Source: a virus
Taxonomy: Duplodnaviria > Heunggongvirae > Uroviricota > Caudoviricetes
Reading direction: 5' to 3' (one strand)
Length of the DNA: 43,035 nucleotides
Virus record (IMG/VR): IMGVR_UViG_2690316195_000004
Shown here: piece after piece, positions 1 through 18,124 of the stretch
Position numbering within the stretch: position 1 is the stretch's first letter
Layout of the letters: every line of letters begins with the position of its first letter
The notes under the pieces: generated by a model
Seen by the model: the letters and a program-made list of their open reading frames with translations, nothing else
Databases searched by the model: none
Told to the model about the DNA's origin: nothing
Program-made: the position numbers and the translations under genes

Positions 1-1164
1 TTACGCCTTCTTTATATCCTCCATAATTCCAGAGTGGGACATATTTGGGACATTATCACCAAAAATGTCGTCTATTTTCCTCGCATGCTCTGTCAAATGA
101 TTAGGCGCAAGGTGAGCATACCTACGAACCATTTCTATGGACTCCCATCCGCCCATTTCCTGAAGCACTGATAATGGGACGCCTGACTGAATCAGCCAGC
201 TTGCCCAGGTGTGTCTGAGGTCATGGAAACGGAAATCTTCAATTCCTGCACGACGACAAGCTGATAGCCATGATGTCTTGCTGTCGATGCGCATCTTCCT
301 GACCGCAGGCGTTGATGTTCCATCTGCTCGCTTAGCCGCCTTGGTATGTACAAACACCCATTTGTGATGCTTGCCTATTTGATCACGCAACACTTTACAG
401 GCGGTATCGTTCAGCGCCACACCAATGGCGCGGTTTGATTTGCTCTCTTCTGGATTCACCCAGGCAACTCGTCGCTGCATGTCGATTTGTTGCCATTCCA
501 GATTTATGATGTTCGACTTTCTCAGACCAGTTGCCAGCGCAAACTTGACGACAGATTTCAGTGGTTCGGGGCACTCATCAATAAGGCGTTTTGCTTCCTC
601 CTTTTCCAGCCATCTGACTCGCTTGTTTCTGACCGCTGGTATCTTGATGACAGGCGCTTTTTCCAGCCACTTCCAGTCGCGTTCTGCAGCACGGAGAATG
701 GCCTTTATCATGGCAAGATGCTTTGCCTTTGTCTGAGTTGATACTGGCTTTGGTTCATAAACAGGCGGTTCTTTACCTTTCCTGATGGCGGCCTGAACTT
801 TCTGTTTCCATATTTCTTTCGTCTTTCTGTTATGCATTCTGCTTACAGCAGAGTAAATCTTTGCCTCCGAGATATCTTTAAGCCTTATACCCTCAAAATG
901 TTCAAGCCAGAACTCAATCCGGCTTTTATCTGAATCGAGAGATTTTTTATCAGCTTTTTCCTCAAGCCATCTTAGGCAGGCCTCTTCAAAAGTGACATCA
1001 GGTAAATCCCCTAGCTTTTCTACTCGCCAGAGTTCTGCTTTTCGCTTGTCGTGCAACTCCTGAGCTTGCCGCTTGTCCTTTGTGCCAAGAGATTCCTTAA
1101 TTCGTTTCTCGCCCGGGAGCGAATACGAGGCATACCATATTTCATTTCTGCGGAAGAGTGACAT
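1..1164 (-). CDS. int: Tyrosine site-specific integrase (Rac IntR-like)
   Basis: 387-aa ORF; C-terminal tyrosine-recombinase catalytic motifs ([27 protein letters not shown]); close to Rac IntR as I recall it; stop codon is the first three bases of the window. Confidence 0.95.
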
Positions 1165-1391
1165 TTTCTTTCCTCTGTTATGCCATCACCCGCGCTCACC
1201 TGGACAGTATGCAGCGGAGACTGAAGCGCCGCAATGCAGGCTTGCCGTGTTGTGAGGTAAGGAGATTTTGGCTTGGTTGGATCTTTACGTGTTGCCTGTA
1301 GGCGGCCTGTTCGTATCCAGTTGGTGGCGGTTGGTCTGGATATCTTAAGAAACTGACAGGCCTCATCGAGTGTGAGGCTGTATGATTCCAT
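1020..1391 (-). CDS. xis: Excisionase (HTH, AlpA/Xis-like)
   Basis: ORF starting [29 protein letters not shown] with SD GAGGTAACC upstream; overlaps int start as in lambda xis/int; 3' extent uncertain (overlaps int by about 145 nt in another frame). Confidence 0.6.
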
Positions 1392-1641
1392 GGTTACCTC
1401 TGCTTTTTGAACGCATGTCACGTAACTTCTTAATGTGTTCTGCCGTTTCGATCTCTTCTGCTATCCGATCTGCATCAGCTTTATTCACAGGTTCAAAGTC
1501 ATGATTAAAGCGGAACATGCTGGCGATACATGTTCTGCCTTTTCGGATGTAGTGAACTTTGTTGTGGGTAGAACGCAGGATTTTGCAGGGAGTGCCGTGG
1601 TGGTCGACGTACCAGGTGTTAGGAAAAATGATTCTGAACAT
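1363..1641 (-). CDS. Hypothetical protein (early-left accessory gene)
   Basis: 92-aa ORF co-oriented with the int-xis-exo operon; no family confidently recognised. Confidence 0.4.
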   Translation of the reverse strand: MFRIIFPNTWYVDHHGTPCKILRSTHNKVHYIRKGRTCIASMFRFNHDFEPVNKADADRIAEEIETAEHIKKLRDMRSKSRGNHGIIQPHTR

Positions 1642-1697
1642 TTTTACACCTCAGTTGGACGATGTTGAAATTTGCTGCTTTGAGGCCATCACAGTCC

Positions 1698-1907
1698 CTA
1701 TTGTTTGTTCTTAAGTTCGATCTCCTCCTGGCAACTCGCACAAGTCCGACAACCCTGAACAGCCAGGCGTCTTCGCTCATCTATCGGATCGCCACACTCA
1801 CAACAATGAGTTGCGGATACAGTCTGGTAGTTCAGACGACGCATTTTTATTGCTGTATTGCGCTGTAATTCTTCGATTTCTGATGCTGAATCAATGATGT
1901 CTGCCAT
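1698..1907 (-). CDS. TraR/DksA-family C4 zinc-finger protein
   Basis: 69-aa ORF with CCECGDPIDERRR...CRTCASCQ, the four-Cys zinc finger typical of phage TraR-like proteins. Confidence 0.65.
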   Translation of the reverse strand: MADIIDSASEIEELQRNTAIKMRRLNYQTVSATHCCECGDPIDERRRLAVQGCRTCASCQEEIELKNKQ

Positions 1908-2005
1908 CTTTCATTAATCCCTGAATTGTTGGTTAATACGCTTGAGGGTAAATGCGAATAATAAAAAAGGAGCCTGTAGCTCCCTGATGATTTTGCTTTT
2001 CATGT

Positions 2006-2287
2006 TTACCGTTCCTTAAAGACGCCGTTCAACATGCCGATCGCCAGGCTTAAATGAGTCGGTGTGAATCCCATCAGCGTTACCGTTTCGCGGTGCTTCT
2101 TTAGTACGCTACGGCAAATGTCATCGACGTTTTTATCCGGAAAATGCTGTCTGGCTTTTTTGATTTCAGAATTAGCCTGACGGGCAATGCTGCGAAGGGC
2201 GTTTTCTTGCTGAGGTGTCATTGAACAAGCCCCATGTCGGCAAGCATAAGCACACAGAATATGAAGCCCGCTGCCAGAAAAATGCAT
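2006..2287 (-). CDS. Hypothetical protein (ea/orf61-region)
   Basis: ORF in the exo-to-xis accessory region; likely true start at internal Met (MTPQQENALR, about 2221). Confidence 0.4.
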   Translation of the reverse strand: MHFSGSGLHILCAYACRHGACSMTPQQENALRSIARQANSEIKKARQHFPDKNVDDICRSVLKKHRETVTLMGFTPTHLSLAIGMLNGVFKER

Positions 2288-2297
2288 TCAGTGGTTG

Positions 2298-2489
2298 TCA
2301 TACCTGGTCTCTCTCATCTGCTTCTGCTTTCGCCACCATCATTTCCAGCTTTTGTGAAAGGGATGTGGCTAACGTATGAAATTCTTCGTCTGTTTCTACT
2401 GGTATTGGCACAAACCTGACTCCAATTTGAGCAAGGCTATGTGCCATCTCAATACTCGTTCTTAACTCAACAGGAGATGCTTTGTGCAT
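2298..2489 (-). CDS. Hypothetical protein (lambda orf63-like)
   Basis: 63-aa ORF downstream of exo, same strand; 28-nt overlap with the next ORF reproduces the lambda orf63/orf60a arrangement. Confidence 0.5.
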   Translation of the reverse strand: MHKASPVELRTSIEMAHSLAQIGVRFVPIPVETDEEFHTLATSLSQKLEMMVAKAEADERDQV

Positions 2490-2650
2490 ACCGCCTCCCG
2501 TTTATTATTTATCTTCTCAGCCAGCCGCTGTGCTTTCAGTGGATTTCTGATAACAGAAAGGCCGGGAAATACCCAGCCTCGCTTTGTAACGGAGTAGACG
2601 AAAGTGATCGCGCCTACCCGGATATTATCGTGAGGATGCGTCATCGCCAT
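2462..2650 (-). CDS. Hypothetical protein (lambda orf60a-like)
   Basis: 62-aa ORF immediately downstream of exo on the same strand. Confidence 0.45.
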
Positions 2651-3321
2651 TGCTCCCCAAATACAAAACCAATTTCAGCCAGTGCCTCGTCCATTTTTTC
2701 GATGAACTCCGGCACCATCTCGTCAAAACTCGCCATGTACTTTTCATTCCGCTCAATCACGACATAATGCAGGCCTTCACGCTTCATGCGCGGGTCATAG
2801 TTGGCAAAGTACCAGGCATCTTTTCGCGTCACCCACATGCTGTACTGCACCTGGGCCATGTAAGCCGATTTTATTGCCTCGAAACCACCGAGCCGGAATT
2901 TCATGAAATCCCGGGAGGTAAACGGGCATTTCAGTTCAAGGCCGTTGCCGTCACTGCATAAACCATCGGGGGAGCAGGCGGTGCGCATACTTTCGTCGCG
3001 ATAGATGATCGGGGATTCAGTAATATTCACGCCGGAAGTGAATTCAAACAGGGTTCTGGCGTCGTTCTCGTACTGTTTTCCCCAGGCCAGCGCCTTAGCA
3101 TTAACTTCCGGAGCCACACCGGTGCAAACCTCAGCCAGCAGGGTGTGGAAGTAGGACATTTTCATGTCAGGCCACTTCTTTCCTGAGCGGGGCTTTGCTA
3201 TCACGTTGTGAACTTCTGAAGCGGTGATGACGCCGAGCCGTAATTTGTGCCATGCATCATCCCCCTGTTCGACAGCTCTCACGTCGATCCCGGTACGCTG
3301 CAGGATAATGTCCGGTGTCAT
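2641..3321 (-). CDS. exo: Lambda-type exonuclease (Red alpha)
   Basis: 226-aa ORF matching lambda Exo as I recall it ([37 protein letters not shown]...); 4-nt overlap with bet. Confidence 0.95.
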
Positions 3322-4103
3322 GCAGCCACCTTCTGTTCAGAGGCTTTCTGTTTCAGGAATCCAAGAGCTTTCACTGCTTCGGCCTGTGTCAGTTCCGACG
3401 ATGCGCGAATGTCGCGGCGAAATATCTGGGAACAGAGCGGCAATAAGTCGTCATCCCATGTTTTATCCAGGGCAATCAGCAGAGTGTTAATCTCCTGCAT
3501 GGTTTCATCGTTAACCGGAGTGATGTCGCGTTCCGGCTGACGTTCTGCAGTGTATGCGGTATTTTCGACAATGCGCTCGGCTTCATCCTTGTCATAGATA
3601 CCCGCAAATCCGAAGGCGAGACGGGCACACTGAATCATGGCTTTATGCCGTAACATCCGTTTAGGATGCGACTGCCACGGCCCCGTGATTTCTCTGCCTT
3701 CACGGGTTTTGAATGGTTCGCGGCGGCATTCATCCATCCACTCGGTAACGCAGATCGGATGATTACGGTCCTTGCGGTAAATCCGGCATGTGCAGGATTC
3801 ATTGTCCTGCTCAAAGTCCATGCCATCAAACTGCTGGTTTTCATTGATGATGCGGGACCAGCCATCAACGCCCACCACCGGAACGATGCCGTTCTGCTTG
3901 TCAGGGAAGGCGTAAATTTCTTTCGTCCACGGATTAAGGCCGTACTGGTTGGCGACGATCAACAATGCGATGAACTGCGCATCGCTGGCATCACCTTTAA
4001 ATGCCGTCTGGCGAAGAGTGGTGATCAGTTCCTGTGGGTCGACAGAATCCATGCCGACACGTTCAGCCAGCTTCCCTGCCAGCGTTGCGAGTGCTGTACT
4101 CAT
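3318..4103 (-). CDS. bet: Red beta single-strand annealing recombinase
   Basis: 261-aa ORF matching lambda Bet ([66 protein letters not shown]...). Confidence 0.95.
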
Positions 4104-4108
4104 CCGTT

Positions 4109-4405
4109 TTATACCTCTGAATCAATATCAACCTGGTGGTGAGCAATGGTTTCAACCATGTACCGGATGTGTTCTGCCATGCGCTCCTGAAACTTAACAT
4201 CGTCATCAAACGCACGGGTAATGGCTTTTTTGCTGGCCCCGTGGCGTTGTAAATGATCGATGCATAGCGATTCAAACAGGTGCTGGGGCAGGCCTTTTTC
4301 CATGTCGTCTGCCAGTTCTGCCTCTTTCTCTTCACGGGCGATCTGCTGGTAGTGACGCGCCCAGCTCTGAGCCTCAAGACGATCCTGAATGTAATAAGCG
4401 TTCAT
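4109..4405 (-). CDS. gam: Gam (RecBCD inhibitor), short form
   Basis: 98-aa [24 protein letters not shown]... matching the lambda GamS sequence; SD CAGGAG 8 nt upstream; the lambda long-form N-terminal extension is absent. Confidence 0.9.
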
Positions 4406-4480
4406 GGCTGAACTCCTGAAAATGGCTGTGAAAATATCGCCAGCGAAATGCCAGGCTGATTAGGAAAACAGAAAAGGGGA

Positions 4481-4687
4481 TTAGTGATTCAGGCCGTTAC
4501 CGCGTCCGTCGAGAAAAACTTCCACGAGCAAATCACGGGTATAAGTGCGCTCGATGCCGCGATGCAGATATAGCCGTCCGCGTAAATTAGCTGATGCAGT
4601 CCAGGTACCATCTTTGTGTTTGACCAGCATTCCTGGCATGACCGCGCCGCGATTAACGGTCTGCGTTCCGTAATGTTGATGAACCAT
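4481..4687 (-). CDS. kil: Kil-family host-killing protein (KilR-like)
   Basis: ORF with strong SD (AGGAG-5nt-ATG) at MVHQHYG...; resembles my recollection of Rac KilR (TASAN, FLDGRG segments); maximal ORF extends to 4771. Confidence 0.5.
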   Translation of the reverse strand: MVHQHYGTQTVNRGAVMPGMLVKHKDGTWTASANLRGRLYLHRGIERTYTRDLLVEVFLDGRGNGLNH

Positions 4688-4959
4688 AAAAACTCCTGCC
4701 CGTAAGCTGGGCTGCTGAACATATAGAGACTTCTGCGCGTATTCAGGCGGTGGATGGCCGCCGGTTGCCATAACTAAGCCGCCTCGTTGAAGCGACTAAG
4801 GTATGAAATGTTGAGTTGATTTCAGCTGGTCACACCGACGTTCACGCGTCCGTTTCATCCCTCGCACTCCCCGAAGCCTGCTGAAATTCAAGCTGCGGAT
4901 CTAAGCGGTCATCGCAACGGTGAATCAGGTGGTTGCCGTATCGTTGTGTTGTTGCGATA

Positions 4960-5015
4960 TGGTGATAATAGCTATTGCTATTGGTGATATCAATACTTAT
5001 TGCTATTAGTAGATG
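4960..5015. promoter_or_regulatory. Putative left operator (OL) / pL region
   Basis: Repeated TTGCTATT(G) cores and a perfect 10-bp palindrome AATAGCTATT, the same motif family found between cI and cro. Confidence 0.45.
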
Positions 5016-5130
5016 TGTTTTGATATTAAATGTTTGATAGCAAAAAGAATTAATTTTGTGACTTGCATCGCATAGCGATAACTGAAGTGAGGTCGTGGTG
5101 GTTTTTTGAACGGTGTGTGATGAGGGGAGG

Positions 5131-5160
5131 GCAAAAGAAAACCCGGCACGGTGGCCGGGT
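5131..5160 (-). terminator. Rho-independent terminator of the cI/rex-slot operon
   Basis: GC hairpin CCCGGC-ACGGTG-GCCGGG immediately after the stop of the 149-aa gene, followed by a U-run on the minus-strand transcript. Confidence 0.6.
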
Positions 5161-5609
5161 TATTGTTCTTGATTGATCTTATCGAAGATATCATGACTTA
5201 ATTTTTGCACATTTAGGAAATTTACTATGAAGAAGACAATTGCGTAAATTATTAATGTGAAAAAAAGTATTGAAGGAGAGAATTTTAGTATCAGGGATTT
5301 AAATTCAAAGCTGAACTCATACTCTTTTAAATATTCACTAAGCACAAGACATAAAGTAGAAAGAGTGAAAAAGCGCAAAAAAGAATTTCGTATAGATACC
5401 AATTCTTTTCTGATAACTTTAACATAATTAATGTTTTTAATGCCAGACATGTTAAAAGTTACAATCAACCCTAACCCGATAGAAAACATTATGCCACAGA
5501 CAGAATACAATGTAGAAATCAAAAACTGATCAGGCCTCCAAGCTAAAAATGATGGAAGCCCGATAGTAATTATCAGAACAATTAGCAAGCTAGCTATTTG
5601 TCGCTTCAT
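5160..5609 (-). CDS. Small membrane protein in the RexB position (four predicted TM helices)
   Basis: 149-aa ORF with four long hydrophobic segments; very AT-rich; last gene of the cI operon, topology analogous to lambda RexB. Confidence 0.6.
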   Translation of the reverse strand: MKRQIASLLIVLIITIGLPSFLAWRPDQFLISTLYSVCGIMFSIGLGLIVTFNMSGIKNINYVKVIRKELVSIRNSFLRFFTLSTLCLVLSEYLKEYEFSFEFKSLILKFSPSILFFTLIIYAIVFFIVNFLNVQKLSHDIFDKINQEQ

Positions 5610-6615
5610 TTTCTATCTCTTTTAAATATCTGCTCATTTCTTGAAATACCTCTTGTTCTACAAGCTTGCCTGAATCAGTAACCTCAATTGTTACATTTTT
5701 AATCTTAAGAAGATCTTTGCCTTTTATTTCTGAGCGACCATCACTTCGTTTGAATACAATGTTATCAAGATCACTAACAGGTTTTAATGTTGCACCTAAT
5801 AGTTTAGCATAACTATCTTCATCCATGCTCCTTGGTTTACTAAACTTTATCAACAGTTCAGCTGATACTATTTGATTGTCAATTATTTCTTTTAGATTTG
5901 GGAAATTTGGTACAGCTGATTTCAATGCATTTAAAACAGCGTGTGAAAGTTTTATTTTTGTATTTTTTTCTTCAATTTCTGATGGTGGCGATTTCATATC
6001 GGATGACTGAACCAATACTTCTTTTGGAAGAGGAGATGGATCTCTCACAGAAATTGATTTTATATCCTTAAGCTGAACTTTATTACCTTTAACAATCATC
6101 GGTGTGAATTCAATCATTTCATTCCCAACCAGCCAGCGTATATAAGTTTGTAGAGATGATATAGTCCTATTCATCTGCAGATTGGTAACTAAATAATTAT
6201 CACTTATACAGAAGTAGAAATGGTTTTTGCATACGACCTCTGTATCAATGTCAGCATTATGGAGATCACTAATTGTAAATGATTTTTTGTTAAAAAGTTG
6301 ATCGGGAATCTTTTCAACTCCCTCGCTTGGGGCAATTCTAACCATTGTACAAAAAACAGAATTACTGTTGTCTGATGTCTGATAGAACGATATCAAATCT
6401 TGTTCTTGCCTAAGATCGTCAGAGTTTAAAACCATGCAACGTTCTTTTACGGTAGATGAGTCAACTAGCTTTTGTAATAAAAGCTTTTTCGCGGGGCTAG
6501 ATTTTTCTGTTAGATTATTGTTTTCTATCTTAAAAGCTCTTAATTTCACTTGTTTAGGTTTATTATATTTTTTATTTACAGAGCTGCTATTTTCACTATT
6601 CATAGAATCAACCAT
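5590..6615 (-). CDS. Unknown soluble protein in the RexA position
   Basis: 341-aa Lys/Asp/Ser-rich ORF directly downstream of cI, overlapping the membrane-protein gene by 20 nt; AT-rich; no recognisable domain. Confidence 0.6.
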   Translation of the reverse strand: MVDSMNSENSSSVNKKYNKPKQVKLRAFKIENNNLTEKSSPAKKLLLQKLVDSSTVKERCMVLNSDDLRQEQDLISFYQTSDNSNSVFCTMVRIAPSEGVEKIPDQLFNKKSFTISDLHNADIDTEVVCKNHFYFCISDNYLVTNLQMNRTISSLQTYIRWLVGNEMIEFTPMIVKGNKVQLKDIKSISVRDPSPLPKEVLVQSSDMKSPPSEIEEKNTKIKLSHAVLNALKSAVPNFPNLKEIIDNQIVSAELLIKFSKPRSMDEDSYAKLLGATLKPVSDLDNIVFKRSDGRSEIKGKDLLKIKNVTIEVTDSGKLVEQEVFQEMSRYLKEIENEATNS

Positions 6616-6708
6616 TGATTATGTGTAGTTTTATAATGTAGTAAGCATCAAGTATTTTTATAATTTGAGTTTGGTTTATCACACAAACATTTAAACCAAC
6701 TTGCTAAG

Positions 6709-7401
6709 TCATCCATGTTTTCTGTATGTCTGCGGCATGCTCCCAATAACTTTCCCGAAGATAAACACCCGGTTCATCTCGTCTTTCTCGATCGGGTCCC
6801 ACGGTGAGTAGCTCTTGTTATCAGAGATAACCAGCAGCTTATCCTTCATCATTTGCAGGCGCTTTACATGGGCTGTGTCGTCATACAGAAACGCATAGAT
6901 ACCATCACCGTCGAAAGATTTAACCGTGATATCAACGAACAGAAGATCACCTGGTTCGATCGTTCCTGACATGCTGTCACCACGCACGTTAATGATGCGG
7001 ATATTTTCCGCCTTCCTGCCATCGAACATGTGACGAGCATCGTCAAACGAGTACTCAACCGAGCGTAGAACTTCTACAAACTCACGGTTGATTACACCCG
7101 GCCCGGCACTGACTTCTATATCAAGAACGTCAATCTTGAAGTATTTTGAATGGCTGACAGCAGGCTTCCCTGATTGTTGACCGTCATTTCTCATCGGGCC
7201 TATGCCTGATGAGAGCCATTCTGTTCGAACACCCAATGCATTAGCTATTTCAACAATTTTTGTTGAGCCGCGCGCGTTGCCGCTTGTCAGTCTCCAGATT
7301 GTGGGTTGAGCTACGCCAGACGCCTTTGCAAGAGCGCCTTGAGACATTCCAGATTGTTCCATCGCTAGGTTTAAGCGATCAGCAAGAGTTTCTTTTTTCA
7401 T
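6709..7401 (-). CDS. cI: CI-type prophage repressor (XRE HTH + S24/LexA-like peptidase)
   Basis: N-terminal HTH (MSQGALAKASGVAQPTIWRL) and C-terminal S24 autocleavage domain (GDSM...KRL); divergently oriented to cro; maximal ORF runs to 7437 (TTG); an ATG at 7401 has no SD, consistent with a leaderless pRM-type transcript. Confidence 0.85.
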   Translation of the reverse strand: MKKETLADRLNLAMEQSGMSQGALAKASGVAQPTIWRLTSGNARGSTKIVEIANALGVRTEWLSSGIGPMRNDGQQSGKPAVSHSKYFKIDVLDIEVSAGPGVINREFVEVLRSVEYSFDDARHMFDGRKAENIRIINVRGDSMSGTIEPGDLLFVDITVKSFDGDGIYAFLYDDTAHVKRLQMMKDKLLVISDNKSYSPWDPIEKDEMNRVFIFGKVIGSMPQTYRKHG

Positions 7402-7505
7402 AAGTTTTAATTTATACGCTTGCGTATTGATGGTCAAAACACGTTTTGCTATTGCTTGGATTAATACGCATTGCTATTATTCATTCATTGCAATACCAAT
7501 AGGAA
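7402..7505. promoter_or_regulatory. Putative right operator (OR) with divergent pRM/pR
   Basis: Intergenic region between divergent cI and cro with three TTGCTATT/TTGCAATA motifs and the inverted repeat ATACGC-TT-GCGTAT. Confidence 0.55.
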
Positions 7506-7511
7506 TTGATA

Positions 7512-7739
7512 ATGACAAATCAAACCATTCAACTCGCAATCAGTATTACAGGTAGTCAAAAACGACTGGCAGATCTATGCGGTGTAGCCCAACCCACAGT
7601 TTGGCGTTGGCTACACGGTGGCGGAATTGATGCCCGCTATGTAATGAAAATTGTCTCAGCCACTGGTGGAAAGATTAAACCAGCAGATATTCGTCCCGAC
7701 CTCGCACCATTGTTTAACGCGAGTAATTCTGCCGCCTAA
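7512..7739 (+). CDS. cro: Cro-like HTH regulator (YdaS family)
   Basis: Small HTH protein (RLADLCGVAQPTVWRWLHG) first on the rightward operon, divergent from cI. Confidence 0.8.
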   Translation: MTNQTIQLAISITGSQKRLADLCGVAQPTVWRWLHGGGIDARYVMKIVSATGGKIKPADIRPDLAPLFNASNSAA

Positions 7740-7763
7740 ACTGCGGCGTTAACTGATAAGGCA

Positions 7764-8309
7764 ATGACTATGCAACCACTTACATACCAACAGACTAGCG
7801 GATTTAGCCCGACTGCGGTGATAAATCGTTCTCAAACAAAACAGGCGCCAGGCCACGAAAAAATCCGTGATGCCGTTCGCGCCTGGTCGGCTGCAGATAA
7901 TCAGGATGTTGTTGCCGCACTCATTGTGAATGAGTATCGGGAGCAGGGCGGCGGCACCATCGATTTCCCTGATGATGTCAGCCGTGCACGCCAGAAGCTG
8001 TTCCGCTTCCTCGATAACAAATTCGATTCTGAAAAATACCGAAATAACGTGCGTGAACTGACCCCGGCAATTCTGGCGGTACTACCGCTGGAATATCGCG
8101 GCCACCTGGTTGAGCAGGATAGCTACATGGCTCGGCTGGCTGAAATGGAAAAGGAACTCAGTGAGGCAAAACAGGCTGTCATTCTCAACGCACCACGCCA
8201 CCAGAAACTGAAGGAGATGAGTGAAGGCATTGTGTCGATGTTTCGTGTGGACCCGGATTTGGCTGGTCCACTGATGGCGATGGTCACCACCATGCTGGGG
8301 GCAATATGA
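7764..8309 (+). CDS. CII-position regulatory protein (possible YdaT-like)
   Basis: 181-aa ORF between cro and O, the slot occupied by cII in lambda; family assignment tentative. Confidence 0.45.
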   Translation: MTMQPLTYQQTSGFSPTAVINRSQTKQAPGHEKIRDAVRAWSAADNQDVVAALIVNEYREQGGGTIDFPDDVSRARQKLFRFLDNKFDSEKYRNNVRELTPAILAVLPLEYRGHLVEQDSYMARLAEMEKELSEAKQAVILNAPRHQKLKEMSEGIVSMFRVDPDLAGPLMAMVTTMLGAI

Positions 8310-8395
8310 CAGGTTCGGAAATGGCGAAAGCCGGTCTGCGCGAACAGAACCGACTTTCAGGTGCAAATCGTAACACACTCATTGCGGGAGGAATT

Positions 8396-9325
8396 ATGGC
8401 AAACACTGCTGAGATATTCAATTTTCCAGTGCCGGATGTGGCACAAAAGGAGCCGCGTGTGGCAGATCTCGATGATGGTTATACGCGCATTGCAAATGAG
8501 TTGCTGGAAGCTGTGATGCTGGCCGGATTAACACAGCACCAGCTTCTGGTCTTCCTGGCTGTCATGCGCAAAACATATGGCTTTAATAAAAAACTGGATT
8601 GGGTGAGCAACGAGCAACTTTCCGAGTTGACCGGGATATTGCCGCACAAGTGTTCTGCTGCAAAAAGTGTTCTGGTAAAGCGTGGGATTTTTATTCAGAG
8701 CGGGCGGAATATCGGCATTAATAATGTGGTCAGTGAATGGTCAACATTACCCGAATCAGGTAAGAAAAATAAAGTTTACCTGAAAGAGGTAAATTTACCT
8801 GAATCAGGTAAGAAAAGTTTACCCAAATCAGGTAAAGGCACTTACCCGAATCAGGTAAACACAAAAGACAAACTAACAAAAGACAATATAAAACCTTTTT
8901 CGTCCGAGAATTCTGGCGAATCCTCTGACCAACCAGAAAACGATCTTCCTGTGGAGAAACCAGATGCTGCAATTCAGAGCGGCAGCAGGTGGGGGACAGC
9001 AGAAGACCTGACCGCCGCAGAGTGGATGTTTGACATGGTGAAGACCATCGCGCCATCAGCCAGAAAACCGAATTTTGCAGGGTGGGCTAACGATATCCGC
9101 CTGATGCGTGAACGTGACGGACGTAACCACCGCGACATGTGCGTGCTGTTCCGCTGGGCATGCCAGGACAACTTCTGGTCCGGTAACGTGCTGAGTCCGG
9201 CCAAACTCCGCGACAAGTGGACCCAGCTCGAAATCAACCGAAACAAGCAACAGGCTGGCGTGACAGCCGGCAAACCAAAACTCGACCTGACGAACACTGA
9301 CTGGATTTACGGGGTGGATTTATGA
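8396..9325 (+). CDS. O: Replication initiator O
   Basis: N-terminal region similar to lambda O (VADLDDGY...RKTYGFNK), iterons embedded mid-gene, C-terminal FRWACQDNFWSGNVLSPAKLR matching the P-interacting domain; SD GGGAGG before ATG 8396. Confidence 0.85.
   Translation: MANTAEIFNFPVPDVAQKEPRVADLDDGYTRIANELLEAVMLAGLTQHQLLVFLAVMRKTYGFNKKLDWVSNEQLSELTGILPHKCSAAKSVLVKRGIFIQSGRNIGINNVVSEWSTLPESGKKNKVYLKEVNLPESGKKSLPKSGKGTYPNQVNTKDKLTKDNIKPFSSENSGESSDQPENDLPVEKPDAAIQSGSRWGTAEDLTAAEWMFDMVKTIAPSARKPNFAGWANDIRLMRERDGRNHRDMCVLFRWACQDNFWSGNVLSPAKLRDKWTQLEINRNKQQAGVTAGKPKLDLTNTDWIYGVDL
8748..8900. repeat. Replication origin: four iterons plus AT-rich region inside O
   Basis: Direct repeats TACC(C/T)(G/A)AATCAGGTAA at about 8748, 8795, 8818, 8842, then an A-rich tract. 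Confidence 0.85.
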
Positions 9326-10023
9326 AAAACATCGCCGCACAGATGGTTAACTTTGACCGTGAGCAGATGCGCCGGATCGCCAACAATATGCCGGAACAGT
9401 ACGACGAAAAGCCGCAGGTACAGCAGGTAGCGCAGATCATCAACGGTGTGTTCAGCCAGTTACTGGCAACTTTCCCTGCGAGCCTGGCTAACCGGGATCA
9501 GAACGAACTGAACGAAATCCGCCGCCAGTGGGTTCTGGCTTTCCGGGAAAACGGGATCACCACAATGGAACAGGTTAACGCAGGAATGCGCGTAGCCCGT
9601 CGGCAGAATCGACCATTCCTGCCATCACCCGGGCAGTTTGTTGCCTGGTGCCGGGAAGAAGCATCCGTTACCGCCGGGCTGCCAAACGCCAGCGAGCTGG
9701 TTGATATGGTTTACGAGTATTGCCGGAAGCGTGGCCTGTATCCGGACGCAGAGTCTTATCCATGGAAATCAAACGCGCACTACTGGCTGGTTACCAACCT
9801 GTACCAGAACATGCGGGCCAATGCGCTTACTGATGCGGAATTACGGCGCAAGGCTGCCGATGAACTGACCTATATGACAGCGCGAATTAACCGTGGTGAG
9901 ACGATACCTGAACCAGTAAAACAACTTCCTGTTATGGGCGGTAGACCTCTAAATCGTGCACAGGCTCTGGCGAAGATCGCAGAAATCAAAGCTAAGTTTG
10001 GGCTGAAAGGAGCAAGTGTATGA
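9322..10023 (+). CDS. P: Replication protein P (DnaB helicase loader)
   Basis: 233-aa ORF essentially matching lambda P as I recall it (MKNIAAQMVNFDREQMRRIANNMPEQYDEKPQVQQVAQIINGVF...). Confidence 0.95.
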   Translation: MKNIAAQMVNFDREQMRRIANNMPEQYDEKPQVQQVAQIINGVFSQLLATFPASLANRDQNELNEIRRQWVLAFRENGITTMEQVNAGMRVARRQNRPFLPSPGQFVAWCREEASVTAGLPNASELVDMVYEYCRKRGLYPDAESYPWKSNAHYWLVTNLYQNMRANALTDAELRRKAADELTYMTARINRGETIPEPVKQLPVMGGRPLNRAQALAKIAEIKAKFGLKGASV

Positions 10024-10226
10024 CGGGCAAAGAGGCAAGTATTCATTATGAGAAACTTTCTAAATTTTTTGAGCCAGATTAGTGGTCTTGGATTCAGTTT
10101 ACGTCTCAGATACTGAGAAAAATAACAATTTGTGATACATGTTAACATTATGACTTTTCAGGCTTTCACCAAATTTTTTTAAGAGTATTCTGACCCTTTC
10201 GTATCAATGCATGAACAGGAATCTAT

Positions 10227-11246
10227 ATGTGTTATAGCAATGTTACAGATCGTGATCTTATGGGGCAAATTGCTACTAAATTAAATGACTATCGAAACCC
10301 TCCTCAAGGTGGCATGAGCATTGATCATGTTAATCGATGGATTAATCAATTTGAGTTAACCGATAGGCGATTTGTCTTAGAGGAAACGGACCGATTAATG
10401 GGGATTGGATACTTCTCTGAGAGCGACTATCGCAGAGTTATTAGTAGTATCGCCAATGATGAGCAAAATGAAAGGTTCTTTCAAACCGCAGCGTTTCTCG
10501 ATATCCAGAACCAAGGCACCAGTCAATCTGAGTTTTTGGATTTGCTTCGCGAAGATTGTGTAGAAGAATTCAACGTTGTGACCAGACTGTCACAACGTCA
10601 AAGAGTTAGTTCATTCCGTGAATTTATTTACCTTGACGATGTTTCATTCTCAGGAGCTAAGGCAATCAATGATTTAACTTGGTTTATTGAGCACTTTGAA
10701 CTCCAAAATATTACAATATTGGTGTACTTTTTAGGCGGGCACACGTATTCAGCATGGAATATAAAAAAACAACTTGAACGAAAATTTGCTGATAGGAATA
10801 TTTCAGTTTGCGTTGATGGTGGTGAGTTTGCAGTTGTTGAAAATCAACGCCGAAACAGTTCGAGTTCTGAGGTTTTTTGGCCAAAAGCGCAAAGTGTATC
10901 AATACCTGAATGGGCTGACGGTCAAGTACATTATTTAGGAACATATCGTGACGGTTACGTCGCGAATAATTTTTTCCCTAATGAGCAGAGACGAGATCGT
11001 TTTGAAGCAATTATGACAAAAGTTGGGTTTGATATCCTTGGTCAGAGTCAAAATCCTTCTGATGCTATAAAGCCTTTAGGCTTTTCAACTTTCAATGGTG
11101 TTGGGTTTGGTGGAACTATCTTTACTTTCAGAAACTGCCCCAATAATACCCCTCTAGCGTACTGGTGGGGAACTTATCTTCGAACGGGAAATAGAGCTCT
11201 GGATTGTTGGTATCCACTTATGAAGCGTAATGTGTATAATCGGTGA
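10227..11246 (+). CDS. Unknown protein with phosphoribosyltransferase-like motif (candidate effector/toxin)
   Basis: 339-aa ORF in the ren/nin moron slot; FIYLDDVSFSGAK resembles the PRPP-binding motif of type I PRTases; stop overlaps the start of the NADAR gene; AT-rich. Confidence 0.55.
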   Translation: MCYSNVTDRDLMGQIATKLNDYRNPPQGGMSIDHVNRWINQFELTDRRFVLEETDRLMGIGYFSESDYRRVISSIANDEQNERFFQTAAFLDIQNQGTSQSEFLDLLREDCVEEFNVVTRLSQRQRVSSFREFIYLDDVSFSGAKAINDLTWFIEHFELQNITILVYFLGGHTYSAWNIKKQLERKFADRNISVCVDGGEFAVVENQRRNSSSSEVFWPKAQSVSIPEWADGQVHYLGTYRDGYVANNFFPNEQRRDRFEAIMTKVGFDILGQSQNPSDAIKPLGFSTFNGVGFGGTIFTFRNCPNNTPLAYWWGTYLRTGNRALDCWYPLMKRNVYNR

Positions 11247-11860
11247 TCATGAGCTATAGACTATACCTGTTTCACAACACAGTTTCTTTCAGGAAAACCA
11301 CCGAGAAATGGGGTGGTCTTTCCAACATGGCCAAAGGATATCCGCTCTTAGTTAATGGTATACCCATTCAATCGAGTGAAATTCTTTACCAAGCATGCCG
11401 ATATCCAGACTATCCAGATATCCAAAAGGCTATTATTACCCAAGGCAACCCTTATGAAGCTAAACAAACCGCCAGATCTTTCGAAGCCAAAACCCGTGCA
11501 GGTTGGGAAAAAAATCGAGTTTCGGTAATGAAATGGTGTGTCTGCGTTAAGCTTTGCCAGAACTGGGAATCGTTTTTCGCGCTCCTGGATAGCACAGGAG
11601 AGCATGACATTGTTGAGCACTCAGAGAAGGACCAATTTTGGGGGGCTAGTAAAGACTCCGAAGGTAACTTTTATGGTATGAACGTGTTAGGTCGTATCCT
11701 TATGGATGCGAGAGATGTTGCAAGAAAGAAGGGGCTTTCAGGGTTTGCTACGATACCGCCGCTACCCTTGGATAGGTTTCTTCTGCTCGGGGAGCAAATA
11801 CGTGATGTTACTTTCTCTCCACTACCGATGAATTCGGGGCAAAGCTTATCGCTTTTTTAA
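11243..11860 (+). CDS. NADAR-domain protein (YbiA-like N-glycosidase / ADP-ribosyl hydrolase)
   Basis: WGGLSNM...SSEILYQACRY...FWGASKDSEGNFYGMNVLGRILMDAR aligns with NADAR hallmark motifs; start GTG 11243 or ATG 11249, coupled to the upstream gene. Confidence 0.8.
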   Translation: MIMSYRLYLFHNTVSFRKTTEKWGGLSNMAKGYPLLVNGIPIQSSEILYQACRYPDYPDIQKAIITQGNPYEAKQTARSFEAKTRAGWEKNRVSVMKWCVCVKLCQNWESFFALLDSTGEHDIVEHSEKDQFWGASKDSEGNFYGMNVLGRILMDARDVARKKGLSGFATIPPLPLDRFLLLGEQIRDVTFSPLPMNSGQSLSLF

Positions 11861-11897
11861 TGTGGCGTTGTTCCTTTCACTGTCGTGACAGATCTGC

Positions 11898-11921
11898 AAA
11901 CCCGCTTTGGCGGGTTTTTTA
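11898..11921 (+). terminator. Rho-independent terminator after the NADAR gene
   Basis: Hairpin AAACCCGC-TTTG-GCGGGTTT followed by T-run. Confidence 0.7.
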
Positions 11922-12113
11922 TAAATTATGCAACTTATTGACTTGCTACCGATATGTCAGACTTTAACATAGCAGCTAAAATCTAGTACGAAGCCGACAA
12001 GGTAAACATTGACTTGGTGGCATCTAGTAAAGCGTACAATGAGTGCCTGAAGTTTTATTTCGAGAAGTCGATAACTTTACCTAAAGGTAGCGATCGGTAG
12101 CGATCCGGTTTAT

Positions 12114-12338
12114 TTGAAAACAGGAGGGTTGAAAGTGACGATAGAATTTGAATCTACCCCAGAAGGGGCAAGGCAGGGAATGACACATCATCAGCGAAAA
12201 ATTAGAGAACTTTTGGAAGAAGAAACTGCTATATGCGAGGACGCTCTTGAAGGTGAATACAATCAAGGTCGTCTGGATGAAATACATAAAGAGATAGCCT
12301 ATCGAGAAAGCCAAATCGAAAAATTGAAGGTTATTTGA
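12114..12338 (+). CDS. Small hypothetical acidic protein
   Basis: 74-aa ORF; SD AGGAGGG before an alternative GTG start at about 12135. Confidence 0.4.
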   Translation: MKTGGLKVTIEFESTPEGARQGMTHHQRKIRELLEEETAICEDALEGEYNQGRLDEIHKEIAYRESQIEKLKVI

Positions 12339-12535
12339 AGACATGAAAGCAATTTGATTTCCAGCTATCAACCCGCCATAATCATGTCATCGGAGCCTGA
12401 ACAACTCCGGTGACTTCTGCGCTAAACGGGGACGTTTATGCGCACATACAATCCAAACTCTCTTCTCCCTTCACAGATGCAGAAATGCACCTGCGATTTT
12501 TTGCATCCAGCGCCTGACCTCTGCGGAGGTGAAGC

Positions 12536-12991
12536 GTGAACCTACCACAAGATGGCATCAAACTGCATCGCGGTAACTTCACCGCTATCGGCCAGCAGAT
12601 CCAGCCTTATCTGGAGGACGGAAAATGCTTTCGCATGGTGCTTAAACCGTGGCGTGAGAAACGCAGTCTTTCCCAGAATGCACTCAGCCACATGTGGTAC
12701 AGCGAAATCAGTGAATACCTCATCAGCAGGGGGAAATCGTTCGCTACCGCAGCATGGGTAAAAGATGCTCTCAAACACACATACCTCGGTTATGAAACCA
12801 AGGACCTGGTTGATGTCGTAACCGGCGAAATCACTACTATCCAGTCGTTACGCCATACCTCCGATCTTGATACCGGAGAGATGTATGTCTTCCTGTGTAA
12901 GGTTGAAGCCTGGGCGATGAATATTGGCTGCCACCTGACTATTCCACAGAGCTGCGAGTTTCAGCTGCTGCGCGACAAGCAGGAGGCGTAA
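12536..12991 (+). CDS. ybcN: YbcN-like nin-region protein
   Basis: 151-aa ORF matching my recollection of DLP12 YbcN; GTG start with SD GGAGGTG. Confidence 0.7.
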
Positions 12992-13161
12992 TGGCTACAC
13001 CGCTTATTCGTGTCATGAACGGACACATCTACAGAGTACCAAATCGTCGTAAGCGTAAACCTGAGCTGAATCCATCCGAAATACCAACACTGCTCGGATA
13101 TACCGCCAGCTTGGTTGATAAAAAATGGTTGCGACTGGCAGCAAGGAGGAATCATGGCTGA
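12991..13161 (+). CDS. ninE: NinE
   Basis: 56-aa [28 protein letters not shown]..., NinE-like; SD AGGAGG upstream. Confidence 0.75.
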   Translation: MATPLIRVMNGHIYRVPNRRKRKPELNPSEIPTLLGYTASLVDKKWLRLAARRNHG

Positions 13162-13444
13162 TTTGAGAAAAGCAGCGCGTAGTCGGGAATGCCAGGTAAG
13201 AATCCCTGGCGTATGTAATGGCAACCCTGAAACGTCTGTACTGGCACATATCCGGCTGACTGGATTGTGCGGCACCGGTACCAAACCGCCAGACCTGATT
13301 GCCACCATTGCATGTTCTGCCTGCCACGACGAAATCGACCGCCGCACACATTTTGTCGATGCTGCATATGCAAAAGAATGCGCGCTGGAAGGTATGGCGA
13401 GAACACAGGTTATCTGGCTGAAAGAGGGGGTTATTAAGGCGTGA
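13154..13444 (+). CDS. ybcO: YbcO-like putative nuclease (Cys-rich, DUF1364-type)
   Basis: [34 protein letters not shown]... with conserved Cys/His; SD AGGAGG; maximal ORF begins 13115. Confidence 0.75.
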
Positions 13445-13803
13445 ATACCTACAGCATCACATTACCCTGGCCTCCGAGCAATAATCGCTATTACCGCCAT
13501 AATCGCGGGCGCACGCACGTCAGCGCAGAGGGGCAGGCATACCGCGATAACGTCGCCCGAATCATTAAAAACGCAATGCTGGATATCGGCCTGGCTATGC
13601 CTGTGAAAATCCGCATTGAGTGCCACATGCCGGATCGCCGTCGCCGTGACCTGGATAATCTGCAAAAAGCCGCTTTTGACGCACTCACTAAAGCAGGTTT
13701 CTGGCTGGATGATGCTCAGGTCGTTGATTACCGCGTTGTGAAGATGCCTGTTACCAAAGGTGGGAGGCTGGAACTGACCATCACCGAAATGGGGAATGAA
13801 TGA
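13441..13803 (+). CDS. rusA: RusA Holliday-junction resolvase
   Basis: 120-aa [26 protein letters not shown]...DLDN, RusA family. Confidence 0.9.
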
Positions 13804-13940
13804 TGTTTGAGTTTTATATGGCAGAACGTCTTCGCCACCGCTGGGGGCGTCTGCGCTTATATCGTTTCCCCGGTTCTGTTTTGACCGATTACCGAATACT
13901 GAAGAATTACGCCAAAACCCTGACAGGAGCAGGAGTATGA
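13800..13940 (+). CDS. ylcG: YlcG-like small protein
   Basis: 46-aa [49 protein letters not shown] overlapping the rusA stop. Confidence 0.65.
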
Positions 13941-14025
13941 AGTCAGAGATAACAATCAACTAATACTGTTTCGTTGATTTTTGCTTGTAATTGGCGTTCT
14001 GGTCTGATTTTTGTGGAGTAAGTTG

Positions 14026-14409
14026 ATGCGTGATATTCAGATGGTTCTTGAGCGTTGGGGAGCGTGGGCGGCTAATAATCATGAAGATGTGACCTGGTCG
14101 TCCATTGCCGCCGGTTTTAAGGGATTAATTACTTCAAAAGTAAAATCTCGCCCGCAATGTTGTGACGATGACGCGATGATCATTTGCGGGTGCATGGCCC
14201 GTCTGAAAAAGAACAACAGCGATTTGCACGATTTATTAGTAGATTATTATGTAGTCGGTATGACATTCATGTCACTGGCAGGTAAGCATTGCTGCTCTGA
14301 TGGTTATATCGGGAAAAGGTTACAGAAGGCTGAGGGCATAATTGAAGGGATGTTAATGGCATTAGATATCCGGTTAGAGATGGATATCGTTGTTAATAAC
14401 TCTAATTAA
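14026..14409 (+). CDS. quuD: Late antiterminator Q (QuuD-like)
   Basis: 127-aa ORF from ATG 14026 ([22 protein letters not shown]...) with Cys-rich zinc-binding segment; precedes the lysis region. Confidence 0.85.
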
Positions 14410-14442
14410 TACGCCAATTATTTACTAAAAGTTATTAAAAAT

Positions 14443-14587
14443 GGGGCGTTGAAACGCCCCCAAAAATAAAGGGTAATATATAACAGAAGGTTTGTATAGT
14501 TAGAAGCAAGGTTGTGCTTCTAAAGGAAGTGGCTTGAGGGAGCCACTTATATGTTGGGGAGGCAAAGCCTCCCACAACATATCTTTT
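14443..14587. terminator. Stem-loop cluster between Q and the porin gene (putative pR'/qut/tR'; bidirectional terminator)
   Basis: Four GC hairpins (14443-14461, 14503-14520, 14529-14546, 14553-14576); the last is a 10-bp stem followed by T-rich sequence on + and lies just past the stop of the convergent porin gene. Confidence 0.5.
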
Positions 14588-14597
14588 AGTAATCAAA

Positions 14598-15680
14598 TTA
14601 GAACTGGTAAACCATACCTACAGCAACGATATCATCGGTAGCAACGCCAGATGCTTTCGTGAAATCGCTCTTATCAATCAGGTTGATTTTGTAGTCAACA
14701 AAAGTGGACATATTTTTGTTGAAGTAATAGGTTGCACCTACATCAACATATTCAACCAGGTCCTGATCACCCCAAACACCCAAGTCTTTTCCTTTAGAAT
14801 GCAGGTAAGCAACGGATGGACGCAGGCCGAAGTCGAACTGATATTGTGCAACAGCTTCGAAGTTTTGTGCTTTGTTGGCAATATGGTTATTACCAAAAAC
14901 AGTCATGTTCTGGGTTTCAGAATAGGTGGTGGCCAGATAGATGTTGTTCGCATCATATTTCAGACCAGCTGCCCATACTTCAGCATTTTGACCAGAAGCA
15001 TTCAGACCGTTGTTACCGTAGATAACCTGATTATTAGTGCGATCAGATTTAGCATAGGTTGCACCCACGCCGAATCCTTCATACTCATAAGTAGTTGAGA
15101 AACCGAAACCATCGCCATTAGCTTCAGTTACTTCATTTCGGTCATTTTTGCCCTGATACTGAGCTGCAAAGTTCAGGCCATCAACCAGACCAAAGAAGTC
15201 GTTGTTACGATAAGTTGCAACACCTGTGGTGCGACCAGTCATGAATACATCTGTTTGGGTCCAGGTATCGCCACCGAATTCTGGCAGAACGTCAGTCCAC
15301 GCACCGATGTCGTATGCTACACCGTAGTTACGGCCGTAATCGATTGAGCCGTAGTCACCGAATTTCAGGCCTGCAAATGCAAGACGGGTTTTGTCTTTGG
15401 AGGAACCTTGAGATTCAGCGCGGTTGCCTTTGAATTCATATTCCCACTGACCGAAACCAGTCAGTTGATCGTTGATTTGGGTTTCACCTTTGAAGCCAAG
15501 ACGGGCATAAGTAGTATCACCATCATCTGCATCATTAGAGGAGAAGTAGTGCTTAGCATTAACTTTCCCGTACAGATCCAGCTTGTTACTGTCTTTATTA
15601 TAAATTTCAGCTGCCTGAGCAGACATCGCCATCAGTACTGATGCAGCTACAGCAGAAATTGCCACTGTTAATTTTTTCAT
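14598..15680 (-). CDS. nmpC: Outer-membrane porin (OmpC/OmpF/NmpC family), prophage-encoded
   Basis: 360-aa ORF with signal peptide ...AMSAQA, porin motifs and C-terminal ...VYQF; between Q and holin as in DLP12. Confidence 0.9.
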
Positions 15681-16107
15681 CGTGAGCCCTTTTTTTTGAA
15701 CTATTATTAAAAAATGATGTCACTGCGCGATAAATATTCATCTAATCAATGTGATTATTTCAAGATGTAAGTTTTAGTTTCTCATTTAATTTGTGAAGTA
15801 GATCTCTATTTTTATCTGAACTTTTTCTATCGAAACCTATTCATGGATCTTGGCTGAATAAAAATAAATCTATTAGCCAATTTATATTAACGGCTGTTAT
15901 TTATAAGTGCTCTGTAATTTGAAGGTTCAATTTAAATCGGCTAAAAATAACACTGGAAATTATTTGTTGGTTATTTGTTGAGATTTGCTTATGTATTTGT
16001 AGTGGTGTTTTCAATACTCGGTAGCATTCTCGCAAATATCATTTTGTGGTTTACGTACGTAAAAAATTGGTTATGCTGTTAAGAGTGGTTACTTCGTCAC
16101 ACAGCTT

Positions 16108-16140
16108 AAACCCGCCGTCGAGCGGGTTTTTCCATTTTTT
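16108..16140 (+). terminator. Rho-independent terminator upstream of the lysis cassette
   Basis: Hairpin AAACCCGC-CGTCGA-GCGGGTTT followed by TTTTCCATTTTTT. Confidence 0.6.
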
Positions 16141-16268
16141 GAGTCTCGATATTAGCTGATAACCCAATACCTGAGTTATTCACTGACTCCGAGTCTGTTA
16201 CGTTTCTGCTTTTTTGCGATACGTTGTATTCCCTCAATTTACACCCGCTTTGTCTGCGAGGTGGGGTT

Positions 16269-16484
16269 ATGAAATCCATGGATAAGTTAACAACGGGTGT
16301 CGCCTATGGCACCTCAGCAGGTAGTGCCGGTTACTGGTTTTTACAGCTGCTCGATAAAGTCACGCCCTCACAGTGGGCAGCAATAGGTGTGCTGGGTAGC
16401 CTGGTATTTGGCCTGCTGACGTACCTGACAAACCTTTATTTCAAGATTAAAGAAGATAAGCGCAAGGCTGCGAGAGGTGAATAA
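16269..16484 (+). CDS. essD: Holin (EssD-like)
   Basis: 71-aa [29 protein letters not shown]... with TM segment and charged C-terminus; directly precedes the endolysin. Confidence 0.85.
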
Positions 16485-17439: not shown

Positions 17440-17470
17440 AGCTGCCCATATCGATGGGCAACTCATGCAA

Positions 17471-17764: not shown

Positions 17765-18124
17765 CTTATTATCCTGCATTGTTAAAAACGGCAGAATCCT
17801 ATGTGACAACAATTAAACGATAGTTAAATGGATTGATGAAAATTAAAACTATATAGGTGGATGCTCAGCCTATTGGAGGAGGGGGGGCACTCAGAATCCT
17901 GTGGAATGAAATAAACCGCTCTATCTGTCCATTACCCTTTTAGCTGCGCTGTATCGTCGCCGTATTCCCGCATTAACCATGACCGTAGCCCGACGGGGAA
18001 TTCCTTCTGCGTGAGTGTGCGGGAATAATCAAAAACGATGCACACCGGGTTTTACTGTGCTGACAGACGCAGGGTTACCCTCATAGTCGCTTTTCCGGTG
18101 CGATGGTGGAAGAAACCGGGATGT

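Follow-up and report, generated by a model that had tools for sequence, protein, structure and literature searches.

A conserved two-part leader with no recognisable N, nut or put element upstream of kil in a DLP12-like lambdoid prophage of Escherichia coli

The closest described systems to the locus reported here are the N-nutL-tL1 arrangement of lambda and phi80, the put RNA of HK022 and HK639, and the YdaS-YdaT immunity region of Rac/CP-933P-type prophages. N proteins are highly diverse, and the N-less lambdoid phages HK022 and HK639 use put, an RNA that in its HK022-type form acts via the zinc-binding domain of the RNA polymerase beta-prime subunit. We know of no N described for the Rac/CP-933P-type prophages. 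Where N is missing, put is routinely suggested by authors; phage LLS lacks N, for instance, and its authors only guess at put (PMC12315714). Our literature searches returned nothing on the leader described below, nor on a lineage lacking both N and put.

The window (the whole stretch of viral DNA that was analysed, 43,035 nucleotides) carries the early region of a lambdoid prophage in its left 17 kb, and positions 4688-5130 are the left control region of this DLP12/Bievrevirus-like prophage. It is surrounded by the following genes:

1-1164, minus strand: int
2641-3321, minus strand: exo
3318-4103, minus strand: bet
4109-4405, minus strand: gam
4481-4687, minus strand: kil, a KilR-type cell-division inhibitor gene that opens the early-left operon (PHROG 294, E 1.2e-38)
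5160-6615: two low-GC cargo genes
6709-7437: S24 repressor gene
7506-7739: cro, YdaS-type (Pfam YdaS_toxin)
7764-8309: cII, YdaT-type (Pfam YdaT_toxin and PHROG 163)

The kil start has AGGAG 5 nt 5' of ATG 4687, and RefSeq annotates the product as a 68-aa cell-division inhibitor. This first gene past the leader belongs to the KilR-type Kil group (PHROG 294 / PF27398), PF27398 being detected in its homologs. O comes after cII, and in the right operon cro, cII, O and P abut, with a cro-cII gap of about 25 nt that is too tight for nutR/tR1. The gam, bet and exo genes are lambda-like. The window shares its YdaS_toxin Cro, YdaT_toxin CII and KilR-type kil with the Rac/CP-933P-type immunity, but pairs this immunity with the Red genes of lambda and with a virion module that is lambda-like and complete. 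HK639 is similar in its S24 repressor, small Cro and YdaT-like CII, and only a left-operon element is annotated in it.

Positions 4400-5200 are 99.9% identical to E. coli MB07081, and 4400-5250 are 98% identical to phage PhiR68_2, which by its gene content we take to be a DLP12 relative that, unlike the K-12 remnant, is intact. The same unannotated gap is seen in two isolated phages, 4A7 and PhiR68_2, and the leader was detected in 2,210 of 5,426 complete E. coli genomes (~40%), with at least 95% identity in all but 9 and no gene called beneath it, so the gap is no assembly accident. The layout is viable, since it is found in isolated phages.

The absence of cIII, ral and sieB, as well as N, had been noted in a first-pass annotation of this DNA, and our searches agree. 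Lambda N, cIII, Ral, SieB and Ea10, phi80 N and HK022 Nun gave a best E of 0.11 by tblastn against the 43-kb window (control, lambda Gam, E = 1.7e-68), and for lambda N, phi80 N and HK022 Nun the best E across the whole window was at least 0.85. Given the diversity of N proteins, one of a wholly new type could escape such a search. The boxA consensus with up to three mismatches gave 58 matches against 57 expected, none of them on the minus strand of 4688-4958, and terminator scans detected no terminator-like site in 4688-4958. An N-like protein or nut site elsewhere in the window, which would speak against the first-pass view, was looked for and not found, and in annotated relatives Q is the only antiterminator. 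With respect to the repressor, OL and pL, the region is placed as in lambda and phi80, and in phi80 the same shared element comes next (see below); it differs from both in lacking an N gene, a boxA-like site and tL1, the terminator that N normally overrides.

The first-pass annotation had offered cis-acting antiterminator RNA of the HK022 type as one explanation. We defined put as a ~70-nt two-stem RNA downstream of pL with the core CGAACGGC...GUCGG...GGCGnGnUCAnGGA...CAAU, and nothing of this description was detected in the window. A degenerate pattern scan of viral contigs yielded 59 putR-bearing loci, and all loci together gave 51 distinct put sequences (27 putR-type and 24 putL-type). Since a MAFFT alignment of putL with putR misplaced a gap, we trained the covariance model, R1, on 10 putL sequences only. 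In each put phage on which R1 was tried, putL scored 95-104 bits and the diverged putR 35-41 bits, and two further loci, L159 and L162, gave new put elements (95-98 bits). With filters off, it scored nothing in the leader; its best match in 1-18000 was 9.8 bits (E 0.31) in cI, with nothing after pR either, leaving the early region empty of put-like elements and the HK022 proposal without a match. R1 was negative also in the relatives of the window, in HK225 and in phi80. 

Likewise, put, Rfam and boxA searches of 4809-4958 were negative. IS009, at 42115-42313, was the one Rfam match above gathering thresholds in the whole window, and an E-value scan of 4400-5300 yielded nothing but sub-threshold sRNA matches, caused by the terminator at 5138-5201; Rfam silence is uninformative on put, because Rfam holds no put family (the HK022 put regions are unmatched). 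A second, putR-like copy of the leader downstream of pR was not found in the window (best local alignment E 0.23), and a second copy is not a universal feature of put, since HK639 is annotated with putL only. The 'M3-like RNA' of HK639 had no counterpart in the window by eye, and O overlaps cII. The locus resembles HK022 and HK639 as an N-less lambdoid with a conserved non-coding segment from the pL start; it differs from them in a leader that is twice as long and unlike put by R1, and in having no terminator between the leader and the shared element.

The early-left promoter lies in an operator region that repeats the right one:

4959-5008: OL operator region, a 50-nt direct repeat of the OR region 7430-7479 (74% identity)
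-35 at 4993 and -10 at 4965, minus strand: pL, TTGATA, 17 nt, TATTAT

The OL/OR repeat contains recurring TTGCTATT motifs. The operators exist in at least three immunity versions among relatives (diversity 0.37), and within 1-5200 pL is the sole minus-strand site to match 10 of 12 promoter bases. Locus L080 is of another immunity type, and it aligns with the window from ATCGCAAC (4956) onwards, 6-7 nt past its own -10, which would place the pL transcript start at about 4958 and give a leader of 271 nt to the kil ATG.

It had been claimed that the ~390 bp between OL/pL and kil hold no ORF of N size and only tiny minus-strand ORFs. No free-standing ORF of N size was detected; the transcribed leader is, however, 271 nt (4958-4688), not ~390. 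The minus strand of 4688-5130 has three ORFs, and the 20-codon ORF from ATG 4858, with GGGGAG at 4872-4867, was confirmed inside the first of them:

4796-4891, minus strand: 31-codon TTG ORF, enclosing the 20-codon ORF
4796-4858, minus strand: 20-codon ORF, MKRTRERRCDQLKSTQHFIP
4925-4993, minus strand: 22-codon ORF within the promoter
5006-5194, minus strand: 62-codon ORF that crosses a terminator

None of the three had a match in PHROGs or Pfam, and the 20-codon ORF is probably not a gene. The kil frame is open upstream to ATG 4771, giving a 96-codon ORF (4481-4771). Among 56 distinct versions (viral contigs and other related loci that were fetched), position 4858 is A (ATG) in 4 and G (GTG) in 51, and the TAG stop at 4798-4796 has its T in 13, while 42 read CAG, so that in most relatives the small ORF joins kil in frame as 125 codons. 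This frame passes through ATG 4771 and is of N size with an arginine-rich start.

A cryptic N-like protein could be read from this arginine-rich ORF (from GTG/ATG 4858 or TTG 4891), as a basic protein of 125 residues in most relatives. Its N-terminus, MKRTRERRCDQLK, looks in our reading like an arginine-rich motif, GGGGAG stands 8 nt 5' of the start, the CAG codon opens the long frame in 42 of the 56, some depositors annotated a long Kil across the stretch, and three high-frequency polymorphisms (4874, 4853 and 4808) fall at third codon positions. Nevertheless, we consider such a protein extremely unlikely. The stop is kept in the window and in 13 of the 56 distinct versions, including the isolated, viable phage PhiR68_2, and one relative misses the start codon entirely; PHROG and Pfam were negative, and by tblastn the peptide is confined to 16 related phages. 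The polymorphic sites number 5, 2 and 5 at codon positions 1, 2 and 3, that is, they carry no coding signal; N-terminal extensions of more distant Kil homologs are unrelated, and no boxA or (by eye) boxB partner was found.

Two related candidates were rejected. A long Kil fusion ORF had seemingly divergent 95-aa homologs, which proved to be frameshifted copies, the truly divergent Kil proteins having unrelated extensions. The leader as a remnant of N was discarded, the 150 nt next to pL being absent from every phage with a full N and the arginine-rich peptide occurring only in the 16 relatives.

The leader is a mosaic of two parts, a lineage-specific segment of 150 nt and, after it, a 121-nt element joined to kil:

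4809-4958, minus strand: lineage-specific 5' part of the leader, 150 nt, with homologs confined to the phage group
4688-4808, minus strand: element common to many lambdoid phages, located downstream of the control module and ahead of kil or other early-left genes

The blastn matches to 4688-4808 include HK225, phi80, HK639 and phages of Enterobacter, Klebsiella and Salmonella, and a pattern scan of viral contigs together with other fetched loci gave 128 distinct versions. The element reads in the order CATACCT, a covarying hairpin and the invariant TTATGRCAACCGGCGGCCATCCACCGCC, which the window matches at 4806-4746. What stands 5' of the element separates the phages. In phi80, the T-run of tL1A, the terminator behind N, marks the exact start of the element, and 4748-4808 aligns there. 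In HK639 it comes after the annotated terminators downstream of putL, and nearly all other versions that we read have a hairpin plus T-run directly 5' of it, with exceptions that carry other sequence (e.g., L182, L152 and L198). In L159 and L162 the element starts 9 nt past put. The window has unrelated sequence where other phages carry the hairpin plus T-run.

We favor, as about an even call, the reading that the prophage lacks the N/nut (or put) cassette and the accompanying terminator as one unit, and that the proximal genes need no processive antitermination. The slot between pL and the element holds nutL, N and tL1 in phi80-type phages, and put, two genes and terminators in HK639-type phages; here the entire cassette is absent, the terminator included. 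pL would yield an untranslated leader of 271 nt (150 nt plus 121 nt), and polymerase from pL would transcribe kil, gam, bet and exo unaided, with the first strong stop at 2580-2558. Because the cassette is absent together with its terminator, these four genes should be transcribable without processive antitermination, and termination within the leader is presumably negligible. The anatomy fits the precedent of HK639, with its left-operon element only, since the right operon has no room for nutR/tR1. In the sibling phages L159 and L162, put holds the 150-nt slot, an observation that counts against the missing-cassette reading.

Downstream of pL, no strong intrinsic terminator is predicted on the minus strand until just past exo, and two candidates precede the distal genes:

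2558-2580, minus strand: hairpin just past exo, the first strong terminator candidate after pL (9-bp stem, 6 GC)
1967-1985, minus strand: intergenic intrinsic terminator candidate, upstream of a TraR-like gene, xis and int

The hairpin at 2580-2558 occupies what we take to be the position of the lambda rho-independent terminator tL3. It is identical to lambda within a 220-nt segment of 97% identity, and is kept in N-less relatives despite the orf60a reading frame over it. The candidate at 1985-1967 has an 8-bp stem followed by TTTTATTATT and is similar by eye to a terminator candidate of the put-carrying L159 (12614-12630). The earlier suggestion that left-operon expression does without processive antitermination is partly supported: it fits the anatomy of the proximal part, where no terminator precedes the shared element and no strong one is predicted before 2580, but not as simply that of the distal part, where terminators stand before xis and int. 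On the missing-cassette reading, expression of xis and int would rely on leaky read-through or on another promoter. That the tL3-position hairpin and 1985-1967 still precede xis/int counts against the missing-cassette reading, and distal expression may need help.

Such help could come in trans, from an unrecognised phage protein encoded elsewhere or from a host factor. The terminators retained before xis/int and several early ORFs without known function are consistent with this; however, annotated relatives have no antiterminator-family candidate besides Q, and the Rfam and boxA scans found no recruitment site. We consider a trans-acting antiterminator very unlikely.

The 150-nt part of the leader is well conserved. 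Among viral records, 4809-4958 was found only in 16 related phages. Across 48 distinct loci, which were picked for identical Kil, so that the comparison is relative and not absolute, nucleotide diversity was 0.024 over 4809-4924 and 0.020 over 4688-4808, and that of kil, gam, bet and exo was 0.047-0.062 at third codon positions and 0-0.012 at first and second positions. The leader is about 2.5-fold less diverse than third codon positions nearby, and this holds over three or more immunity types. The leader is under constraint, which a mere spacer would not be. The 35 nt at its 5' end are exchanged in one immunity type. The constraint across at least three immunity types also counts against the reading in which the cassette is simply missing.

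This conservation raises the possibility that 4809-4958 is a cis-acting, promoter-proximal processive antiterminator RNA of a new class, in place of put or N, which would modify RNA polymerase so that it gets past the downstream terminators and into xis and int. Like put in L159 and L162, the segment runs from pL +1 to the shared element; it is conserved over the immunity types, from approximately the transcription start in L080, with a diversity of 0.024 vs ~0.055 at third codon positions, and terminators persist downstream at 2580-2558 and 1985-1967. On the other hand, sequence and structure are unlike put by R1, the right operon has no second copy, one immunity type has a different sequence over the first 35 nt, and recent recombinational spread could equally explain the conservation.

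Folding, which had been proposed as a check for paired stem-loops in the leader, gave z = 0.01 for the full leader and -0.56 to +0.73 for sub-segments of the 150-nt part; only 4740-4812, within the shared element, was significant. Real put RNAs have z = -0.7, -1.1 and +0.3, that is, they too have no thermodynamic signal, so whole-leader folding was discarded as a test and the non-significant z of the leader is no argument against an antiterminator RNA. RNAalifold on 18 low-divergence variants predicted five helices with 54 pairs, among which there were 0 compensatory changes, which would speak against the RNA had the variants diverged enough to decide; one-sided changes were wobble-compatible in 11 cases vs 5 that break the pair (our own count from the per-pair table). 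A 19-mer from the leader core gave 7 matches in species-representative genomes, all unrelated and non-enteric (Streptomyces, Microtetraspora and assorted MAGs), so no cross-genus copies of the leader were available for covariation. Overall, a new antiterminator RNA appears unlikely.

The significant fold belongs to the promoter-distal part of the leader:

4767-4806, minus strand: extended hairpin enclosing AUG 4771
4746-4773, minus strand: invariant 28-mer, UUAUGRCAACCGGCGGCCAUCCACCGCC

The fold of 4740-4812 had z = -3.06, equalled by 1 of 200 shuffles, and was the sole significant fold of the leader. In 71 versions of the hairpin, 84% of cells were paired, with 31 pair types; sliding the 3' partner by 1-3 columns as a control gave 25-61% paired and 17-28 types. 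The 28-mer includes AUG 4771, the codons M-(A/T)-T-G-G-H-P-P-P and a hairpin GGCGG/CCGCC (4762-4746). Synonymous third-base changes were permitted by the search pattern, and one G-to-T was seen in 72 versions. Bases past the 28-mer are conserved as well, in reading frames that differ between phages. The near absence of synonymous variation and the differing frames suggest that the constraint is at least partly on the nucleic acid. This element of hairpin plus 28-mer is seemingly unannotated in all records that we examined.

The first 78 nt of the leader have a C/G ratio of 1.71, at about the 95th percentile of the left operon, and the ratio is 1.4-1.5 over 4830-4740. The leader could accordingly exert negative or conditional control of the toxic kil, with Rho loading on the C-rich untranslated 5' part and translation of the AUG-4771 ORF deciding whether transcription and translation proceed into kil. 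The C-rich composition, the significant and covarying hairpin that encloses the AUG, and the invariance of the AUG and the codons G-G-H-P-P-P, with three proline codons, are consistent with such a gate, and phi80 has an annotated rho-dependent terminator, tL1B, just 3' of the same element. In the Salmonella mgtA leader, a leader ORF with proline codons controls Rho-dependent termination. The mgtA leader is similar by analogy, in a short ORF with consecutive proline codons and a long, structured, C-rich 5' leader before the first gene; it differs in that there is no sequence relation and in that the constraint in the window seems to be on nucleotides. With one synonymous change in 72 versions and the frame lost past codon 9, the constraint may concern the nucleic acid rather than the peptide, and the element could be a mere recombination linker that joins modules. 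We regard a gate on kil as unlikely, to the same degree as the antiterminator RNA. Weak terminator-like hairpins with 5-6 bp stems stand at 4538-4522 and 4454-4440, and these, together with the C-rich first 78 nt (Rho), count against the missing-cassette reading.

The novelty of the locus lies in a very common E. coli prophage lineage with neither N nor put. If the simple reading, in which cassette and terminator are missing, is true, the antiterminator and the first terminator would be gained or lost jointly, as one cassette, and lambda-type Red genes would run from pL without N, which would help prophage annotation and the prediction of induction. If the leader is active, it would represent a second kind of antiterminator RNA or a Rho/translation gate on the toxic kil; in the former case, pL transcripts would pass the tL3-position hairpin and 1985-1967 in ~40% of the sequenced E. 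coli genomes.

The flank upstream of pL completes the region:

5009-5139: AT-rich spacer between the terminator and OL, upstream of pL and outside the early-left transcript
5140-5161: bidirectional intrinsic terminator, which on the minus strand ends the cI-plus-moron operon and is equivalent to lambda tIMM

The spacer has a GC content of 0.38-0.40, no credible ORF and a nucleotide diversity of 0.166, far above that of the leader. The terminator has an 8-bp stem with 6 GC, followed by TTCTTTTGCC on the minus strand, and it is the point where homology stops between relatives with differing cargo genes.

We detected a short element in the untranslated pL leader, upstream of kil, that is shared by many lambdoid phages:
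window 4746-4806, and also loci L005, L006, L007 and L150-L269: in order, CATACCT, a covarying hairpin and the invariant TTATGRCAACCGGCGGCCATCCACCGCC.
The invariant part codes for M-T-T-G-G-H-P-P-P, and in at least 128 distinct sequences the element lies directly 3' of tL1-type terminators or of put, the HK022-type antiterminator RNA. Annotation of the complete element was absent from every record examined; in the record of the put-carrying phage HK639 only its GGCGG hairpin is annotated, as a terminator. Three roles are conceivable for the element: regulatory RNA, leader ORF and recombination linker.

The junction with put takes a compact form in two viral contigs carrying bona fide put RNAs (95-98 bits across the two, scored against a covariance model of putL sequences):
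L159, 6155-6229: put RNA.
L162, 8489-8563: put RNA.
In both, 9 nt separate the put end from the shared element, with neither a gene nor a terminator between them, whereas the HK639 layout is less compact.

The leader also carries polymorphisms. A common one, between stop and sense, affects the triplet at 4796-4798, which is TAG in 13 of 56 versions and CAG in 42, and the start codon at 4858 is ATG in four versions and GTG in 51 of the 56. The combination of these alleles decides if kil is joined to a 125-codon frame, and the long form has been annotated as Kil by some depositors. Near 4820, four related loci (L021, L028, L038 and L059) carry a 5-nt duplication (TCAAC), and the leaders of L010 and L014 have single-base indels. 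Changes in length are tolerated in this stretch. Downstream of kil, the lambda Gam long form aligns as far as 4480, past the 98-aa gam ORF (4109-4405), and the kil-gam spacer (4406-4480) is therefore homologous to the lambda gam 5' extension.

Two structures, a hairpin and a terminator, have been kept in this phage, for which no antiterminator is known:
2558-2580: hairpin identical to its lambda counterpart, at the position that we take to be tL3.
1967-1985: good intergenic terminator, similar to one in the put-carrying L159 (12614-12630).
Lambda has nutR and tR1 at the cro-cII gap, whereas the 25-nt gap of the window has a single structure:
7726-7745: hairpin GCCGC-CTAAACT-GCGGC without a T-run; the stop codon of cro lies within it.

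The rexAB position, between cI and a terminator, is occupied by cargo genes:
5160-6615, minus strand: two overlapping genes (GC about 30%; products of 149 and 341 aa).
The 149-aa product is membrane-like as judged by eye, and neither gene had a match in PHROGs, Pfam or PADLOC. Different cargo was found at the same site in the related locus L008 (a SIR2-family protein) and in the isolated phage 4A7 (an ASCH-domain protein and a hypothetical protein). The site has the appearance of a hot spot for defence or exclusion genes, occupied here by an uncharacterised gene pair.

Close to the right end of the window, a full-length Rfam match was detected:
42115-42313, plus strand: IS009 (RF02111), scoring 218 bits where the gathering threshold is 117.
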